A stretch of DNA of 44,376 nucleotides, from the NCBI GenBank assembly GCA_964603435.1, contig CAZRUM010000001.1:27045-71420 (forward strand). Direction: 5' to 3'. The notes below the pieces were generated by a model. It had not been told where the DNA came from. It saw only the letters and a program-made list of their open reading frames with translations, and did not search any database. Of this stretch, positions 1,550-41,914 are shown piece after piece. This stretch comes from an uncultured Gammaproteobacteria bacterium (GTDB lineage Bacteria; Patescibacteriota; Patescibacteriia; Magasanikbacterales; UBA922). Within the stretch, counting starts at the first letter, position 1. Each line of letters opens with the position of its first letter. Both the position numbers and the translations under genes were made by a program.

Positions 1550-3373
1550 ATGCCTGCATTCAATAATAAAAAAAAGTTATTTGGATTGTTCTTAATACTA
1601 TTTTTTTTACTATCTTTTTTTAATATCGGACAGACCCAGGCAGCTAATAAAAAAGTCGCAGTTATTGGTTCCTCTACTTTTGACAGAGGTTGCAATACTC
1701 CTACTGGTTTTGTAAAAATATTAGCAAAGGAACTACCAAATTATAATTTCGTTTGTAAAGTTGGCAATGAAAAACTAGCCTTACAAAGCAAAAATTCTAC
1801 ATTTTTTTTAACTCAATTTCAAAATTATGTCAGTAATAAAGGATACGATGAATTATTACTTTATGCTGATCTAAATGGTCTATCTAATGCAGTTACCTTG
1901 AAAAGATCCCAAAAAAACCTCGCCACTATTATTCAATCTGCCAAAAGCCAAGGTATGCGTGTAATTGTGGTGGGGGCTCAACCAGCCAAAGGTTATGGCA
2001 AGGTTAATGACACATGGATAAAAAATATAAAATCTAATAACAATTTCCTGGCTACAAAACCATATAATATAGATATTTTTATTGAAGTATATAGTGTTGT
2101 TGACAAAAATAACGACGATTTTTTAGATGAAAATCTAACAACTGATAAAATTCATTTAAACCCTGACGGCAATAAAATTTTAGCCGACTTACTTCTAACT
2201 CAAGCTTATGGTACGGGAAGTACATCACAAATTCAAATTATACAAAATACAAGACCTGCCGGTGATAGCGAAAACGGTTTTCGTCTACTAGAACCACAAA
2301 CAGTTATTACACTACCTGGCTTAAACTTTACCCCCATAGATTTTGTCAAAAAATATAGTGGCATAGATGAAAGCGGTCAATATTTATTTTTTCCTTATAT
2401 CGGAGAATACTTATCAGCAATTTATAAATATGGCATAGTAGCAGGTGGTGTAGTGGCCATAGTGATGATTATTATTGCTGGTTTTCAATGGACCACCTCT
2501 GGTGGTAACGCAACTCAGACTCAAAAAGCTAGAACTAGAATCACCCAAGCTATAGCAGGCCTAATACTACTAGTTGGTTCATATTTTATACTCTACACTT
2601 TAAATCCAAACCTTGTCACTTTCAAAAATCTAAAAGTTTTATATATACCAATAGACAGCTTGGAAAGAAATGTGATTGTTAATAATGGCACTTTCAAATA
2701 TACTACACCATCTACTGGAATTGTTGGAACTGGCTCAGCTAAAAAAATAGAAAATGAAACTTTTGATGATACTTTCAAAGCCTTTGCTAATTGTGTCGGA
2801 GCTGACTGGAGAATTCTAAAAGCTTTTGCCTACAAAGAATCTAAGTTAAATCACACTATAGACAATAAAAGAGGATTTATAGGTCTTTTTCAAACCAATT
2901 CTAAAAATTGCCGTGAGTCTCTAAAAAAATATCCAGCATGGGCAGCTCTATGTGGTGACATGACTAACCCAGCAGTAAACACAGCAGTCGGCGCAAAGAT
3001 GCTTGGATTAGGTATGGCTAATATTGAAAAAAGATGTGGTGATATACCAAAAAGAGATGCCGCAGCACTATTTTATCTAAATCATAACAGTGGTTATTAT
3101 GCAGTTACCTGGATAATAAAAAATGGAAATGCCTGCAAAGGTGAAATTTTTGTAAAGAAAAGCATAATTGATTTTTGGAACCAACATAAAAACGGAATAC
3201 ACAAAGGAAAACTTATGGGTGAAATTAGAGGTCCTTATGCTTATGCTACGGCTGACCTAACCTTACAACTAGGAGTAACAGATTTTCATGATACTTCTGG
3301 TAACAATAACTTTGAATGCCCCTCAACGGTAGCCCTGAAGATTTTGAAAATTTTCTTAAAGCAAGAGCTTTGA
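1550..3373 (+). CDS. Secreted fusion: SGNH hydrolase + two-TM pilin (TrbC/VirB2-like) + lytic transglycosylase (SLT) domain
   Basis: Signal peptide; VIGSS and DKIH SGNH blocks; pilin segment AGFQWTTSGGN…KARTRITQAIAGLILLVGSYFILYTLNP; SLT motifs AYKES, GLFQ, NHNSG. Confidence 0.75.
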   Translation: MPAFNNKKKLFGLFLILFFLLSFFNIGQTQAANKKVAVIGSSTFDRGCNTPTGFVKILAKELPNYNFVCKVGNEKLALQSKNSTFFLTQFQNYVSNKGYDELLLYADLNGLSNAVTLKRSQKNLATIIQSAKSQGMRVIVVGAQPAKGYGKVNDTWIKNIKSNNNFLATKPYNIDIFIEVYSVVDKNNDDFLDENLTTDKIHLNPDGNKILADLLLTQAYGTGSTSQIQIIQNTRPAGDSENGFRLLEPQTVITLPGLNFTPIDFVKKYSGIDESGQYLFFPYIGEYLSAIYKYGIVAGGVVAIVMIIIAGFQWTTSGGNATQTQKARTRITQAIAGLILLVGSYFILYTLNPNLVTFKNLKVLYIPIDSLERNVIVNNGTFKYTTPSTGIVGTGSAKKIENETFDDTFKAFANCVGADWRILKAFAYKESKLNHTIDNKRGFIGLFQTNSKNCRESLKKYPAWAALCGDMTNPAVNTAVGAKMLGLGMANIEKRCGDIPKRDAAALFYLNHNSGYYAVTWIIKNGNACKGEIFVKKSIIDFWNQHKNGIHKGKLMGEIRGPYAYATADLTLQLGVTDFHDTSGNNNFECPSTVALKILKIFLKQEL

Positions 3374-8920: not shown

Positions 8921-8964
8921 AGTTGTATTGTAACAAAAAACCTCCTGTTTGGGGAGGGTTACAG

Positions 8965-9036
8965 TGCTCTCGCTAGGAATCGAACCTAGATCATCGGTTC
9001 CGCAAACCGACATTCTATCCGTTGAACTACGAGAGC
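8965..9036 (-). tRNA. tRNA-Arg(GCG)
   Basis: GCTCTCG/CGAGAGC acceptor stem, anticodon arm TCGGT-TTGCGGA-ACCGA, GGTTCGATTCC T arm; CCA not encoded. Confidence 0.95.
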
Positions 9037-36929: not shown

Positions 36930-37008
36930 GGTTTGGTTCCCACCATTGGACACATTCCGAACTATGGAGTGGGAAAGGATGTCTGGTTGGATAAAACCTA
37001 GTATTTAT

Positions 37009-37506
37009 TCATCCTACAAATACTGAGTAATGTTTGTTGATGTTATCCATTAAAGACACCGGTACTACTTTATCAGCAGATTCACAAAAAAAGTTAAACA
37101 ACGGCATCACCTCACAAGTTAAGCCTTTGACATCCCATGGTCTATTCTCATCATTTGCATCCAATCTAAAAGTCGTGAGATGACCCACTTCTTTATCCGC
37201 ACGGTTTTTTGCTCTCACAAGTGTTTCACTTAAATCTGACCTGATTTCTTCCCAAGTCTCTTTTTTAATAAAAAAATTCTTTGCGCACACATCAGTATCT
37301 CTTACTTCACCTGGTGGGTAAAGAAAATTAATCAGATTACGCAGATGAATCACATATGATTCAAGAGTCATGTACTCTAATCCCCGTGTAATTTGAAATT
37401 CTTCTGCTATTGCGTGTGTCGCATTTAATAACATTTGAACTTCATACCTTACGTGTTCCTTAAAGTAATCTAATAATTGTTCTTCACTTAAATCTTTTGT
37501 TTTCAT
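37009..37506 (-). CDS. Hypothetical helical protein, possible HEPN-like RNase
   Basis: LESYVIHLRNL and RADKEVGH (Rx6H); sits at the tRNA-Asn 3' end. Confidence 0.6.
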   Translation of the reverse strand: MKTKDLSEEQLLDYFKEHVRYEVQMLLNATHAIAEEFQITRGLEYMTLESYVIHLRNLINFLYPPGEVRDTDVCAKNFFIKKETWEEIRSDLSETLVRAKNRADKEVGHLTTFRLDANDENRPWDVKGLTCEVMPLFNFFCESADKVVPVSLMDNINKHYSVFVG

Positions 37507-37558
37507 ATTGATTAATCATAACAAAAAAGAAGCAAACCGTAAAGTTCGAATCCAGTCG

Positions 37559-37631
37559 CTCCCCCAGCTGGGTTTGAACCAACAACCTCTGCGTTAACAG
37601 CGCAGCGCTCTACCAATTGAACTACAGGGGA
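37559..37631 (-). tRNA. tRNA-Asn(GTT)
   Basis: TCCCCTG/TGGGGGA acceptor stem, CTGCG-CTGTTAA-CGCAG anticodon arm, GGTTCAAACCC T arm; CCA not encoded. Confidence 0.94.
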
Positions 37632-37639
37632 ATAAAAAT

Positions 37640-37665
37640 AAAAAACCCGCTTGTTTAGCGGGATT
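37640..37665 (-). terminator. Attenuator terminator upstream of tRNA-Asn
   Basis: ATCCCGC-TAAACAA-GCGGG-TTTTTT ending about 8 nt before the tRNA. Confidence 0.82.
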
Positions 37666-37688
37666 TTAGTAATTTTTTATATATAAAA

Positions 37689-37742
37689 CTACATCCCGCA
37701 AGCGGTATTATTATTGTTATTATTGTTATTTAATAGTTTCAT
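37689..37742 (-). CDS. Asn-rich leader peptide MKLLNNNNNNNNTACGM
   Basis: 17-codon ORF with 8 consecutive AAT/AAC codons; its 3' part GCGGGAT can pair with the terminator 5' arm. Confidence 0.85.
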   Translation of the reverse strand: MKLLNNNNNNNNTACGM

Positions 37743-37746
37743 ATGT

Positions 37747-39066
37747 TTATATTGTAGTAGACTTTAGGCTGTTTGTCAACCTATCTATTCTAATCTTGTA
37801 AGAATCTATATCTAAATTTCCTGCCGCCCCTAAAGATACTTTTGATTTTAAATTATTTTCAACATCCACCTCGTAATCAGCAAACTTTTCAGATGCTTGC
37901 TTGTAGGCATCTCTGAACGGTAGATTCTCTTTCAAAACCAACTCGTTTGCATAATCTGCCATAAAAATATCTTTATTGATATTACTCTTTATTTCTTCTC
38001 CATTTGGTTTTATTCCCTTCAGTACCACACCTACAACCTCTATAGTATCTAGGATAATCTTAATGCTTTCAAATAAAGGTTTTTTCATAAGCTGGCTTTG
38101 TCTATTGTAACCAGAGACAATTCCATTATTCAGATTTTTTAACATCATTTGATTGGCCGAAATTACTTCTGCCTGACCTTTTACAATTTCCAGCACATCT
38201 AGATTTTTCTTGTGAGGCATAATACTCGAACCCGTCACGATATTATCATGAACTGAAAAATACTTACATTCTTGAGAGGTAAAAAACAACATGTCAGTAG
38301 CAAATCTCGACATTGTCATCATAACCTGAGACAGACCCTCCATCATCATACTCTCATACTTTCCTTTTCCCGCCTGACAATAGAGAGAATTGACTTGTAT
38401 ACTTGCAAAACCTAGATTCTCAGTTGTGTTTTTTCTATCAAGCGGGATATTCACTCCAAACCCAGCAGCAGAACCCAGAGGATTTTTGTCTATCAGTTTT
38501 TGTATTGAATCTAGATAATCAATATCATCTAGAATACTTTCCAAAATACTTGCCATATAATGTCCCACACTAGAAAGCATAGCTTGTTGGGTATGAGAAT
38601 AACCTGGTAGAGGTATCTGTTCGTGACTCTTAGCAAAGTTAAAAAACTTTTGTGCTAACCCCAAATAATTTTTCTTTACCTCTTTCAACTTATTTTTCAT
38701 ATAGAGTCTCATAGCTACCAAAACCTGATCATTCCTACTTCTGCCAGTATGAATTTTTTTACCCACGTCTCCCAGCTTTTCTACTAAATAATTTTCAATT
38801 ACAGTATGACAATCCTCATCTTCAATTTTTATTTCTATTTTCCCACCTTCCCAATCTTTTTTAATCTCACCTAGAGCTGTTTGTAATTGTTCATTTTCCT
38901 CACCCGAAATAATTCCTATTTTCTCCAACATCTTGGCGTGAGCCTGGCTAGCTTCTACATCATAAAGAAACAATTCTTTGTCCCAAATAAAATCTTCACC
39001 CACAGTATATTTTTCAATACTTGGGTGTAACACCACATCATCTTTTTGCCAAAGTTTTTTATTCAT
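37747..39066 (-). CDS. argH: Argininosuccinate lyase
   Basis: IHTGRSRNDQV, PGYSHTQQA, PLGSAAG, TGSSIMPHKKNLD, PFRDAY. Confidence 0.96.
   Translation of the reverse strand: MNKKLWQKDDVVLHPSIEKYTVGEDFIWDKELFLYDVEASQAHAKMLEKIGIISGEENEQLQTALGEIKKDWEGGKIEIKIEDEDCHTVIENYLVEKLGDVGKKIHTGRSRNDQVLVAMRLYMKNKLKEVKKNYLGLAQKFFNFAKSHEQIPLPGYSHTQQAMLSSVGHYMASILESILDDIDYLDSIQKLIDKNPLGSAAGFGVNIPLDRKNTTENLGFASIQVNSLYCQAGKGKYESMMMEGLSQVMMTMSRFATDMLFFTSQECKYFSVHDNIVTGSSIMPHKKNLDVLEIVKGQAEVISANQMMLKNLNNGIVSGYNRQSQLMKKPLFESIKIILDTIEVVGVVLKGIKPNGEEIKSNINKDIFMADYANELVLKENLPFRDAYKQASEKFADYEVDVENNLKSKVSLGAAGNLDIDSYKIRIDRLTNSLKSTTI
37751..37779 (-). promoter_or_regulatory. Promoter of Asn leader/tRNA-Asn, inside the argH 3' end
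   Basis: TTGACA-17 nt-TACAAT ending 8 nt before the leader ATG. Confidence 0.8.
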
Positions 39067-39071
39067 ATACT

Positions 39072-40346
39072 TTAATTCTTATTTAATTCACCTTCAAAAT
39101 CATAAACATTATAAGCTGTCTTTTGTGCCATAGTATATAACTCAATAAAACCAGGTGAAGCATTTTGATTGAATTTCGGATCTTTATTGAATGTTGCCAA
39201 ACTCTCATCAAACAAAGAATAAGGTGAAAACAAAGCTGTAACTGTAATATTACCTTTATACAATTTTATTTTTGCCTTACCTGCCACCTTTTTATTCTGA
39301 CTATTAATAAAAGCATGGATATGATACATGACTGGGTCATACCACTTGGCACCATAAGTAAGATATGACCATTTTGTATCCACAAATTCTTTCAGTTCAT
39401 TTTCCTCTCTGGTAGATACTAATTGCTCCAATTTTTTATGAGCTGAAATGAGCATTGAGGCACCAGGGTTTTCATATATACCTCTAACCTTAAGCCCCAC
39501 AATTCTATCTTCTATCAAATTGAAAACTCCTACCCCATGCTTTGCTCCAATTTTATTACACTCCATTATTATTTCGCTCAGTTTTTTCTTTTCACCATTT
39601 AGCGCTACAGGTATACCTTTTTTGAATTCAACTTCAATAATCTCGGCTTCATCTGCAGAATTTTCTACAGTTTGACACCATTGCAAAATATTTTCCAAAG
39701 GTGGTTCTAATTCTGGATTTTCTATTTCCCCACCCTCACCAGTATTACTCCACATATTTTCATCATAAGAATATGGTGAATCTTTTTTTTGCTTTACTTC
39801 AATACCGTGTTTAACGGCATATTCTAATTCTTCTTCCCTGCCCATACCCCACTCCCTCACCGGTGCAATTATTTTGATATCTGGATCAAGTGTAGTCATA
39901 TAACCCTCAAATCTCACCTGATCATTACCTTTGCCAGTACAACCGTGAGCTATTACCTGACAACCATGTTCCTTGGCAACTTTGATAGCCACCTTGGAAA
40001 TTACAACTCTACCCAAAGGGCAACCCAGTGCATAGCCACCCTGATAGTCAGCATTGGCTTTGATAGCTTCTGACAACATCACATCGGCAAATTCGTCTTT
40101 AGCGTCATACACAATCACCTCGCTAGCCCCTAATTTCAAACCCTTCTCCTTTATCTCTTCTAGATTATCAGCAGTTTGACCAATATCAATGGTAAGGGCT
40201 ACTACCTCACAATTATATTCTTCTTTTATCCACTTGAGCATGACTGAAGTATCAAGCCCGCCAGAATAAAGTAAAAGACATTTATCAAATTCACCTTTTT
40301 TAGCTTCATAAGAAGCAATTTTTTTGTAATTATTTTGTGTATCCAT
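39072..40346 (-). CDS. argG: Argininosuccinate synthase
   Basis: YSGGLDTS, HGCTGKGNDQVRFE, YSYDENMW, IEDRIVGLKVRGIYE. Confidence 0.97.
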   Translation of the reverse strand: MDTQNNYKKIASYEAKKGEFDKCLLLYSGGLDTSVMLKWIKEEYNCEVVALTIDIGQTADNLEEIKEKGLKLGASEVIVYDAKDEFADVMLSEAIKANADYQGGYALGCPLGRVVISKVAIKVAKEHGCQVIAHGCTGKGNDQVRFEGYMTTLDPDIKIIAPVREWGMGREEELEYAVKHGIEVKQKKDSPYSYDENMWSNTGEGGEIENPELEPPLENILQWCQTVENSADEAEIIEVEFKKGIPVALNGEKKKLSEIIMECNKIGAKHGVGVFNLIEDRIVGLKVRGIYENPGASMLISAHKKLEQLVSTREENELKEFVDTKWSYLTYGAKWYDPVMYHIHAFINSQNKKVAGKAKIKLYKGNITVTALFSPYSLFDESLATFNKDPKFNQNASPGFIELYTMAQKTAYNVYDFEGELNKN

Positions 40347-40435
40347 ATATTTCTATTATTAGATTAATTATACTATTTAGCTTACCAATACCATTGCCAA
40401 ATCGGTTATGATAAAAGATTTGCCTCACGACAAAT

Positions 40436-40465
40436 AAAAAACCTCTCTCGTAAGAGGAGGTTTTT
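40436..40465 (-). terminator. Attenuator terminator upstream of argG
   Basis: AAAAACCTC-CTC-TTAC-GAG-A-GAGGTTTTTT. Confidence 0.82.
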
Positions 40466-40486
40466 AAAGTTTGTAAATATACTAAA

Positions 40487-40546
40487 CTAACCAACTCTTA
40501 CGGAGAGGAACATACGACGACGGTTATTTAGTAAATAATTTTTCAT
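40487..40546 (-). CDS. Arg-containing leader peptide MKNYLLNNRRRMFLSVRVG
   Basis: 19-codon ORF with CGT-CGT-CGT; its CGTAAGAG is complementary to CTCTTACG of the terminator. Confidence 0.83.
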   Translation of the reverse strand: MKNYLLNNRRRMFLSVRVG

Positions 40547-40555
40547 AACAAATCT

Positions 40556-40584
40556 AGTTTAGCAACTATTTAATTTTATGTCAA
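40556..40584 (-). promoter_or_regulatory. Promoter of Arg leader/argGH
   Basis: TTGACA-17 nt-TAAACT with extended -10 TGC, ending 9 nt before the leader ATG; -35 overlaps the last recO codons. Confidence 0.78.
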
Positions 40585-41196
40585 GTTTACAATCTTACCC
40601 CAATCCCCAACTTTCCTATCAGTATTAAAAACCAAAGCTTTGTAAATAAAATTATGAACTTGTTTATTATATTCTAATTTACTTACAGCCTGCCAATTTC
40701 CCTCAGACAATTCTTTTAGCCCCACCTTCACACTAGCAGAGGCTTTTTCTAATTCTGTAATATCAAAACCTAACAAAATTAATAATTTAACAAAAAAACT
40801 ATCTAATAAAGTTTGATATTTAGATTCTGAAGTCTGAAGGCTAACGAATTCAAGCCAACTCAAAATTAAATTAAAAATATCTTGATCTTTCTCACCTTCA
40901 TGTAATATTTTATCGAGGGCTGACATTACAAACCCAGCTGATAAACTTTTTTGTAAATCACGTCTGATATTGGAAAAATAATTCACAGGCTGGGCTGCAC
41001 CGAGATACGCAATCCCCTTCCCAGAAATAATTTCTAAATCTACGAAAGAAAACGGCTCTAAATGAGCCGAATTTTTACTAGTTATTTTTTTTACTCCCCG
41101 TGCAAGAACTTCCAGTTTTCCTTTTTCTAAAGTATAGAATGAAATAATCTGATCGTTTTCTTTTATGTCACGGCGAGAGAGGATGAGAGATTGCAT
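40576..41196 (-). CDS. recO: DNA repair protein RecO
   Basis: ENDQIISFYTLEKGKLEVLARGVKKITSK, HLEPFS OB-fold N-terminus. Confidence 0.9.
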   Translation of the reverse strand: MQSLILSRRDIKENDQIISFYTLEKGKLEVLARGVKKITSKNSAHLEPFSFVDLEIISGKGIAYLGAAQPVNYFSNIRRDLQKSLSAGFVMSALDKILHEGEKDQDIFNLILSWLEFVSLQTSESKYQTLLDSFFVKLLILLGFDITELEKASASVKVGLKELSEGNWQAVSKLEYNKQVHNFIYKALVFNTDRKVGDWGKIVNLT

Positions 41197-41199
41197 ATT

Positions 41200-41547
41200 T
41201 TAAATCTCAGTATATTTTTTATTATCACCTTTACATTTTTCTACTGGATATTTTTCTGCATTCTTTTTCATCTTCTGTTCTACGGCTTCAAAAATATCAA
41301 TGTTCAAGACTTTAGCTAATTCAAATAGATAAACTGCTACATCAGCCATTTCATCTTTGATATCATTATGCTTTTCTTTTACTCGTTTATCTAGTTTTTC
41401 GGCTGTCACCCATAAAAATAATTCGGACAGTTCGCTAGCTTCAATGGACAGGGCCATAGCCAAATCTTTGGGGTTGTGAAACTGACGCCAATCACGATCT
41501 TGCATAAACTTATCAATCATCTTAAGTGTTTCATCGTATCTATCCAT
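41200..41547 (-). CDS. MazG-like nucleotide pyrophosphohydrolase
   Basis: RDWRQFHNPKDLAMALSIEASEL, DEMADV, KNAEKYP; start at MDRY. Confidence 0.92.
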   Translation of the reverse strand: MDRYDETLKMIDKFMQDRDWRQFHNPKDLAMALSIEASELSELFLWVTAEKLDKRVKEKHNDIKDEMADVAVYLFELAKVLNIDIFEAVEQKMKKNAEKYPVEKCKGDNKKYTEI

Positions 41548-41548
41548 A

Positions 41549-41914
41549 TTATTTTTTATTATCCAAATAACCTCGTAAAATAAGCATGGCAGCTTTTTCA
41601 TCTCGACTGGCTTCTCCCTCCATTCTATCGGCCTGCGCTGAAGTAAAACGCTCGTCGACAAAAAATATTGGTTTATCTATTTTAGTTTTCAATTCACCCA
41701 CAAATTCATTTACCCTATCAGTGTTTTTATTTTCCTTTGCATCCAAACCAAAAGGCATTCCAAATACTATTTTGTCTATATTTTCTTTTTTAATAACAGA
41801 CACTAATTCTTCCAAACCACCAACTACACCAAAAGGCAAGACAACATCAAGACCAACTTGCATCCAAGCAAGGCCCGTGCGTTTTTTTCCATAGTCTACA
41901 CCAAGTATATTCAT
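41549..41914 (-). CDS. yqgF: YqgF/RuvX nuclease
   Basis: LGVDYGKKRTGLA, GMP, VDERFTS, DEKAAMLIL. Confidence 0.92.
   Translation of the reverse strand: MNILGVDYGKKRTGLAWMQVGLDVVLPFGVVGGLEELVSVIKKENIDKIVFGMPFGLDAKENKNTDRVNEFVGELKTKIDKPIFFVDERFTSAQADRMEGEASRDEKAAMLILRGYLDNKK

Follow-up and report, generated by a model that had tools for sequence, protein, structure and literature searches.

In a 44,376-nucleotide stretch of DNA from an uncultured bacterium of the Patescibacteriota (order Magasanikbacterales, UBA922; GenBank assembly GCA_964603435.1, contig CAZRUM010000001.1, positions 27,045 to 71,420), hereafter the window, the genes argG and argH are preceded by a compact element that is very probably a ribosome-mediated (leader-peptide) transcription attenuator, sensing charged tRNA-Arg and controlling both genes. 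For arginine, control by the repressor protein ArgR/AhrC is the standard example, with T-boxes in some Firmicutes, and the amino acid does not figure among those customarily listed for leader-peptide attenuators. Judged by comparison of sequences, the element would represent a new variant of a textbook mechanism, widespread in bacteria of the candidate phyla radiation (CPR) and in Balneolaceae. Three hallmarks of a leader-peptide attenuator occur together at this locus: a short open reading frame (sORF) bearing cognate codons, an intrinsic terminator before the first gene, and an antiterminator strand that a ribosome could cover. The same architecture is present a second time in the window, with asparagine codons, which we count in favor of this interpretation. 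Ribosome-mediated sensing of arginine had been proposed in a preliminary description of the locus, and the proposal is supported by the conserved Arg codons, by the failure to find ArgR, and by the short gaps between T-run and argG in relatives, as detailed below.

Anatomy of the arginine leader

Every feature listed in the preliminary description is present, and the element lies on the minus strand. The promoter that had been described, with hexamers TTGACA and TAAACT separated by 17 nt ending in TGC, agrees with the consensus; the ATG has its first base at 40546, 9 nt after the -10 hexamer; the ORF contains the three CGT codons; and the terminator, placed earlier about 90 nt before argG, leaves 89 nt between its T-run and the argG start codon. 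The individual features, with the neighboring genes, are as follows.

40584-40556, minus strand: promoter-like site, a consensus match only (10/12, including TG before the second hexamer)
40584-40579, minus strand: -35 hexamer TTGACA, overlapping the end of the recO-like gene at its stop codon (40578-40576)
40561-40556, minus strand: -10 hexamer TAAACT, preceded by the 17-nt spacer
40546-40487, minus strand: leader ORF MKNYLLNNRRRMFLSVRVG, 19 codons plus TAG (ATG 40546-40544, TAG 40489-40487)
40522-40514, minus strand: three tandem CGT Arg codons inside the leader ORF, the proposed sensing (stall) site
40509-40488, minus strand: 5' strand of the antiterminator, formed by the 3' end of the leader ORF including stop-codon bases and complementary to 40463-40442
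40465-40436, minus strand: intrinsic terminator (A5 40465-40461, stem-loop 40460-40442, T6 40441-40436)
40435-40347, minus strand: 89-nt spacer between terminator and argG, containing a second, weak hairpin and a TATAAT (40372-40367) that has no good -35 before it
40346-39072, minus strand: argG, argininosuccinate synthase, 424 aa (PF00764 2.8e-61, PF20979 1.3e-68), the first regulated gene
39066-37747, minus strand: argH, argininosuccinate lyase-type Lyase_1, 439 aa, beginning 5 nt after the argG stop
41196-40576, minus strand: recO-like gene (RecO_N 4.5e-16), upstream neighbor of the element

The A5 tract of the terminator starts 21 nt past the stop codon of the leader ORF, and the stem-loop reads CCTCCTC-TTAC-GAGAGAGG, with seven pairs, one bulged A and the loop TTAC.

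From this layout we infer the following course of events. RNA polymerase would start at the TTGACA/TAAACT site, yielding a transcript whose 5' end coincides with the AUG of the 19-codon ORF or precedes it by a few bases. Where Arg-tRNA is plentiful, a ribosome would reach the UAG and cover 40509-40488, predicted to be the only sequence able to pair with the terminator arms; with that strand covered, the hairpin and its U-run would form and transcription would end before argG. Where Arg-tRNA(GCG) is scarce, the ribosome would stall on the three CGU codons, leaving the RNA from about 40501 free to pair with the terminator's 5' arm and loop as these emerge, in which case no terminator would form and polymerase would enter argGH.

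Alternative folds of the leader RNA

The 121-nt leader has a minimum free energy (MFE) of -32.2 kcal/mol (z -4.63), a value equaled by none of 200 shuffled sequences. In this fold 40507-40489 and 40462-40442 are joined in one long hairpin, and the end of the sORF thereby occupies both arms of the terminator. The antiterminator complementarity noted earlier is therefore real, and larger than had been described: the full strand, 40509-40488, pairs with 40463-40442, across both terminator arms, with a duplex energy of -27.8 (z about -7; 0/200 shuffles). Considered alone with its A/U extension, the terminator folds at -13.4 kcal/mol (z -4.97), again unmatched among 200 shuffles. When the RNA is left free only from 40501, as with a ribosome positioned on the Arg codons, the MFE structure (-17.3) is the antiterminator; when it is free only from 40487, as with a ribosome at or past the stop codon, the terminator alone forms. 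In these folding models the geometry of the leader fits a two-state switch set by the position of the ribosome.

Occurrence of the architecture in the genome

The genome comprises 903 kb at 35.9% G+C and is 97.5% complete. Positions 37000-41700 of the window were present in ten DNA sequencing runs labelled salt-lake metagenome, of which two are probably its source, and in none of the RNA runs listed. Arg accounts for 3.8% of its codons, and CGT and AGA make up 35% and 37% of Arg codons, respectively (CGT plus CGC, 45%). To recognize candidate leaders we applied an operational rule: an ATG-initiated sORF of at most 45 aa, with at least two adjacent Arg codons, and a hairpin and T-run between -15 and +110 nt of the sORF stop codon, all of it no more than 330 nt ahead of an ORF that is 100 aa or longer. 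This rule matches 14 of 997 ORF starts in the genome, argG among them, and exclusive use of CGT/CGC is confined within this set to argG and one match at a gene end. An Arg-run sORF on contig C21 (MFVLFRRRCCLS) was judged a chance occurrence, having the codons AGG/AGG/CGG, lying beside a bidirectional terminator and being followed by no credible gene; the other 12 matches have mixed Arg codons or are located at gene ends. A Lys-run sORF on contig C6 was an artefact, out of frame inside the 3' end of recA.

A blind scan of the whole 903-kb genome for the architecture itself (a sigma-70-like promoter, an interval of 5-11 nt, an ATG sORF of 6-40 aa and a terminator) returned four matches: the Arg element, the Asn element described below, one on contig C3 and one on contig C43. 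The C3 match was discarded, as it lies inside a coding region. The match on C43 (about 2830-3030, plus strand) consists of a promoter-like site, an sORF (MIVQRQKFYSFFFMNLP) containing FFF, a terminator and then a 164-aa ORF without assigned function; this could be a leader with Phe codons, or chance alone could account for it.

Conservation at argG loci of relatives

The gene argG is rare in this lineage: it was detected in 25 of the 240 order genomes and in 30 of a 401-genome sample of the phylum. A scan of these relatives (loci are numbered with the prefix L) bears out the conservation of Arg codons upstream of argG, which the preliminary description had named as a test: otherwise unrelated peptides have in common a run of two to five Arg codons, with a hairpin and T-run 19-42 nt after the stop. 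Within the order of the window the design is present at 10 of 25 argG loci. All nine order loci whose ArgG is at least 62% identical to that of the window (L001, L002, L003, L004, L008, L009, L010, L011 and L026, the last recognized by eye) have an Arg-run sORF and terminator directly upstream. At L024 the leader sits upstream of argH-argG, at L012 a T-box takes its place, and at L025 the 5' end is missing from the sequence. The phylum sample added six new loci with a leader by the rule (L027, L029, L030, L032, L033 and L054) and one, L055, at which the leader is placed before a preceding gene.

A wider set comprised 80 loci with ArgG 67-79% identical, six of them shared with the first set. 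Half (40) came from CPR-labelled or unlabelled metagenome-assembled genomes, under the names Magasanikbacteria, Uhrbacteria, Peregrinibacteria, Peribacteria, Gracilibacteria, Saccharibacteria, Moraniibacteriota and 'Patescibacteria group'. A leader was found at 25 of these 40 loci (24 by the rule within 330 nt, and L100 by eye), and five more (L113, L115, L118, L126 and L160) have one farther upstream; L095 and L098, in this half of the set, have T-boxes. The remaining 40 loci were from non-CPR organisms, namely Balneolaceae, Rhodohalobacter, Ekhidna, Calditrichia, Melioribacteraceae and one gammaproteobacterium. At 27 of them, all falling in L133-L173, the leader lies about 1.1-1.3 kb upstream of argG, before a gene of the ornithine transcarbamylase (OTC) family (argF') that precedes argG. 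This version is strongly conserved (M..H.T..S.LRRRRPxGV) and is followed by a strong terminator (-12 to -21 kcal/mol); an example is L151:205-340, from the cultured Rhodohalobacter sulfatireducens WB101. No Rfam family matched the Balneolaceae/Rhodohalobacter Arg leader. Matches nearer to argG in L133 and L141 were rejected as an out-of-frame piece of the OTC-family gene, and a match in L149 was dropped as dubious. The range of the element extends beyond Patescibacteria to Balneolaceae-type genomes, where it stands before argF'-argG.

Two groups of loci present other arrangements. One clade of ArgG proteins of about 540 aa (L005, L013, L015-L023 and others; 54-60% identical to the ArgG of the window) has a C-terminal extension of about 130 aa, and its argG immediately follows a gene whose product, about 325 aa long, has an HxH metal-hydrolase-like (amidohydrolase-like) N-terminus. 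At the 13 loci of this clade in the order, no Arg leader was seen in up to 1.5 kb upstream; L016 has, just before the metal-hydrolase-like gene, a terminator and an sORF containing one Arg codon. In L101 (Melioribacteraceae), a hairpin and T-run about 20-55 nt upstream of argG occur without an Arg-run sORF, and this hairpin may be another kind of attenuator.

Features common to the leaders

We compared 33 non-identical leaders, a few of them near-duplicates. The encoded peptides range from 9 to 29 aa (median 18), and Arg constitutes 20.9% of their residues, as against 3.8% of genome codons; no motif beyond the Arg run is common to all 33. Codons of the runs are distributed as CGT 42, CGC 39, CGG 6, CGA 4, AGA 2 and AGG 1, giving CGT/CGC 81 of 94. 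A hairpin and T-run follow the stop in all 33, at a median distance of 30 nt, and the T-run in turn precedes the next gene start by 7-161 nt (median 32, mostly 7-40 nt). In 19 of the 33 leaders, the antiterminator complementarity exceeds that of no fewer than 195 out of 200 dinucleotide shuffles. One sub-group, in which the peptide ends right after the run, carries the sequence SQLRRRR in CPR genomes and LRRRRPxGV in Balneolaceae.

The leaders are too divergent to align beyond small groups. In one such group, consisting of the window, L130 and L104, 88.9% of antiterminator cells pair, compared with 43-58% when the 3' partner is slid, and 3 of 18 antiterminator pairs are altered on both sides in a compensatory manner between the window and the other two; this sample is small (three rows), and the structure was derived from the window, itself one of those rows.

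Initiation of the leader ORF and regulatory setting

Most leaders are preceded by a TTGACA-type -35, a spacer of 16-18 nt and a TAnnnT -10. The interval from the -10 to the ATG is 6-11 nt in 9 of 14 related Arg leaders, a count that takes L004 at 9 nt, from its first ATG (the ATG chosen by the rule gives 18 nt). As the ATG is so close to the -10, the mRNA of the sORF is probably leaderless or nearly so; the distance of 6-11 nt at regulatory sORFs suggests leaderless initiation. Shine-Dalgarno-like tetramers occur upstream of 48 of 617 long ORFs in the genome, compared with 43 of 617 in a control window (start sites being approximate). The genome thus does not appear to use Shine-Dalgarno sequences, and the lack of one before the leader ORF is no objection to its translation.

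The preliminary description had pointed to the presence or absence of argR as informative. Neither PF01316 nor PF02863 was found in the genome, and PF02863, the C-terminal domain of ArgR, was found in none of 240 genomes of the order in a search that detected it in control genomes. The tRNA-Arg anticodons present are GCG, TCG, CCT and TCT (the last in two copies), and no tRNA-Arg ACG gene was found in the tRNA set of the genome; since no ACG gene was found, wobble rules imply that the CGT/CGC sensor codons would be read by tRNA-Arg(GCG). One tRNA-Arg gene lies within the window (8964-9036, minus strand).

An OTC-family gene is embedded in the pyr operon (contig C10, 17477-16518), and a search of the genome for arginine deiminase and carbamate kinase found neither; from this combination, argGH would complete arginine synthesis from ornithine or citrulline. 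The surrounding region of C10 (13295-22382, minus strand) contains gatB and then pyrB and ORFs resembling pyrI, pyrC, pyrD, pyrE and pyrF, these names being read from N-terminal sequences; scores were obtained only for the two OTCace matches and gatB.

A second leader, with asparagine codons, before tRNA-Asn

An element built like the Arg leader is located immediately after the argH stop codon, its promoter-like site lying inside the end of argH. Its parts and the features that follow are listed here.

37779-37640, minus strand: Asn element as a whole
37779-37751, minus strand: promoter-like TTGACA-17-TACAAT (11/12 match)
37742-37689, minus strand: sORF MKLLNNNNNNNNTACGM with its stop codon; ATG 8 nt after the -10; eight Asn codons at 37730-37707
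37706-37693, minus strand: Asn antiterminator strand
37662-37646, minus strand: Asn terminator stem, followed by T6
37631-37558, minus strand: tRNA-Asn(GTT), the only tRNA-Asn gene of the genome, 8 nt after the terminator T-run
37506-37009, minus strand: 165-aa ORF with no Pfam match, following tRNA-Asn
36878-35583, minus strand: asnS (446.7 bits, above the family cut-off)

As in the Arg leader, the last part of the sORF can pair with both arms of the terminator (MFE -27.3 kcal/mol, z -5.65). Against Rfam the element gave only a sub-threshold match to Trp_leader (29.4 bits, E 0.003, cut-off 41). By eye, the arrangement of Asn leader and tRNA-Asn was recognized in 27 of 29 same-family genomes with enough upstream sequence (loci L056-L085), and a strict rule recovers the leader in 21 of 30 same-family loci. 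In these the ATG is mostly 8-9 nt after the -10, and the T-run mostly ends 2-13 nt before the tRNA; asnS is found within 1.5 kb downstream of tRNA-Asn in only 5 of the 30. Elsewhere in the phylum, an Asn leader occurs at one of 26 tRNA-Asn loci (L191, of the same class). At four same-family loci (L058, L060, L084 and L074), 43-105 nt of tRNA-like sequence stand between the Asn terminator and the tRNA-Asn called by ARAGORN; this extra stretch could be a second tRNA, an intron or the result of a miscalled tRNA start.

The gap between terminator and tRNA is too short to hold a promoter, so that tRNA-Asn seems to be transcribed only when polymerase reads through the Asn-codon attenuator. A ribosome starved of Asn-tRNA would then directly raise transcription of tRNA-Asn and, in the window, also that of asnS. 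Leader-peptide attenuators ahead of genes of the aminoacylation machinery are familiar from pheM-pheST of E. coli. Leaders with His codons before hisS and hisZ have likewise been reported as attenuators ahead of aminoacylation genes (PMC2965389). The Asn element resembles these in having an aminoacylation gene, asnS, downstream, and differs in that the first gene behind the terminator is the tRNA-Asn itself, both in the window and in 27 of 29 relatives. In the full-text literature, the coverage of which did not extend to subscription-journal papers on comparative genomics, we found no precedent for a tRNA gene under leader-peptide attenuation. Taking the two elements together, we lean toward the view that this lineage, without ArgR or use of Shine-Dalgarno sequences, employs leaderless leader-peptide attenuators as a general sensor of tRNA charging, extended to a tRNA gene, such that attenuation would act as a tRNA homeostat.

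Alternative explanations

Several observations weigh against attenuation at argGH as set out above. The core stem of the terminator is modest, at -7.6 kcal/mol without its A/U extension. The best candidate for a region 1:2 (pause or anti-antiterminator) hairpin, at -13.2 kcal/mol (z -1.56), is equaled by 17 of 200 shuffles and does not appear in the full-length MFE structure; consequently, untranslated RNA is predicted to adopt the antiterminator (ON) state, unlike the trp paradigm. The pairing with CTCT just after the Arg run, proposed in the preliminary description, is weak and absent from every MFE structure. The TATAAT in the 89-nt spacer could feed argG independently. In the order, 13 of 25 argG loci lie directly behind another gene, with no Arg leader in up to 1.5 kb. 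Fourteen of the 33 leaders have complementarity no better than that of shuffles, mostly those with a stop codon directly after the Arg run, and such variants may work differently. Finally, related genomes are non-independent samples.

Against this background we consider three other explanations. What the leader relies on might be not a shortage of charged tRNA-Arg but its nascent peptide or free arginine, as with arrest peptides such as the fungal arginine attenuator peptide, TnaC and SpeFL, or else polybasic stalling. Arg runs alone can slow ribosomes, and the sub-group whose peptides end right after the run does share common motifs. Yet the Arg run is the only part conserved over the 33 leaders, the bias toward CGT/CGC points to the codon and its tRNA rather than to the residue, and the sign is wrong: stalling gives read-through here, so that a stall brought about by arginine would switch on a biosynthetic operon just when arginine is abundant. 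We regard this mode of action as quite improbable.

About equally improbable, in our estimation, is control by sORF translation through another route: translation might alter the stability of the mRNA, act by way of Rho or occlude the argG start, and the hairpin would then be a stability or processing element instead of a conditional terminator. Such routes have precedents in orf34-speF (PMC6386406) and rbfL-rbf (PMC13009471), both of which are described as using Arg codons of an upstream ORF. Against them stand the canonical hairpin and T-run found behind every leader within the same narrow range of distances, the alternative pairing that specifically consumes the terminator arms, and the position of the argG start, which at 89 nt is beyond occlusion by a ribosome on the sORF.

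Least probable of all is that the hairpin and T-run merely terminate the recO-like gene, argG being driven by a promoter in the 89-nt spacer and the sORF being fortuitous: the terminator does lie 115 nt past the recO-like stop codon, and the spacer does contain a perfect TATAAT 20 nt before the argG ATG and a 9/12 promoter-like match at 40400-40372, but the Arg-run sORF and its terminator are found again in divergent sequences and after a wide variety of upstream genes, the promoter-like site of the element is upstream of the sORF rather than of the terminator, and neither the background of the rule (14/997) nor the strength of the complementarity of the sORF end to both arms favors chance. 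The same spacer bears on a possibility that the preliminary description had named as damaging, a separate argG promoter after the terminator. Among most relatives the 7-40 nt between T-run and argG leave no room for one, which argues against it as a general explanation; in the window, the TATAAT makes a weak second, internal promoter possible, of minor effect.

Relation to known regulatory systems

The classical attenuators of enterobacteria (trpL, hisL, leuL, thrL, pheL and ilvL) share with the element a short ORF containing codons for the end product, mutually exclusive antiterminator and terminator hairpins, and a decision set by the position of the ribosome. The element of the window differs from them in its amino acid, arginine, in having no clear region 1:2 hairpin, in its apparently leaderless sORF, and in belonging to a genome that does not use Shine-Dalgarno sequences; its hosts are CPR/Patescibacteria and Balneolaceae, whereas those of the classical attenuators are enterobacteria.

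Three relatives carry a T-box (RF00230) at the same position upstream of argG: L012:2989-3244 (minus strand), L095:1160-1441 and L098:1155-1438. They score 87.2, 66.2 and 72.2 bits, respectively, with E-values from 4e-18 to 1.5e-12 and scores below the Rfam cut-off of 93. From the alignment and the anatomy of T-boxes, the specifier triplet of L012 presumably reads CGC (Arg). These T-boxes indicate that charging of tRNA-Arg is the signal used at argG in sister genomes. A further weak T-box match lies upstream of argG in L048 (2749-2979; 34.9 bits, E 1e-4). The T-box with an Arg specifier and the element of the window are alike in their position before argG, in reading the charging of tRNA-Arg, and in the choice of intrinsic terminator or antiterminator as output; they differ in that the T-box binds uncharged tRNA directly, without translation, whereas the element uses a translated ORF. 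No match to RF00230 was found in positions 37500-40700 of the window at E up to 1, and no Rfam leader family matches 40436-40546 at E up to 1, where only sub-threshold models for miRNA, sRNA and RNAI were returned.

No description of an Arg-codon leader peptide attenuating transcription of arg genes was found in the full-text literature; older comparative-genomics papers on attenuation fall outside that coverage, so an earlier description is possible. Two known systems come close in the use of Arg codons. In orf34-speF of Salmonella, two consecutive Arg codons are reported to pause ribosomes at low arginine and thereby select an alternative mRNA fold (PMC6386406). That system, as described there, differs in its outputs, namely Rho-dependent termination, unmasking of a ribosome-binding site and RNase G decay, and in its target, polyamine synthesis (PMC6386406); the element of the window has an intrinsic terminator as its output and arginine biosynthetic genes as its targets. 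In rbfL-rbf of S. aureus, a small upstream ORF is likewise described as sensing arginine limitation through its Arg codons (PMC13009471). Here the codons are the rare AGA/AGG, and a paused ribosome blocks a downstream ribosome-binding site, making the control translational and of opposite sign, with no terminator (PMC13009471). An earlier paper on leader peptides, which it states were then known only from Proteobacteria and Actinobacteria, added the His leaders before hisS and hisZ, and its passages on the subject do not mention arginine (PMC2965389). Candidate leader peptides before amino-acid operons have also been noted in a flavobacterium (PMC9723704).

Biological implications

The arginine leader shows how reduced genomes of about 0.9 Mb, without ArgR, could still regulate one of their few biosynthetic operons. 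It would constitute a new class of cis-regulator to annotate, covered by no Rfam family. Many CPR lineages and Balneolaceae-type bacteria have it conserved in front of argG or the argG operon, where it alternates with T-boxes at the same position. Its occurrence in the cultured Rhodohalobacter sulfatireducens WB101 (L151) makes direct testing possible. The near-leaderless sORF, in a genome that appears to do without Shine-Dalgarno sequences, and the Asn element that would gate a tRNA gene together widen the known reach of an old mechanism.

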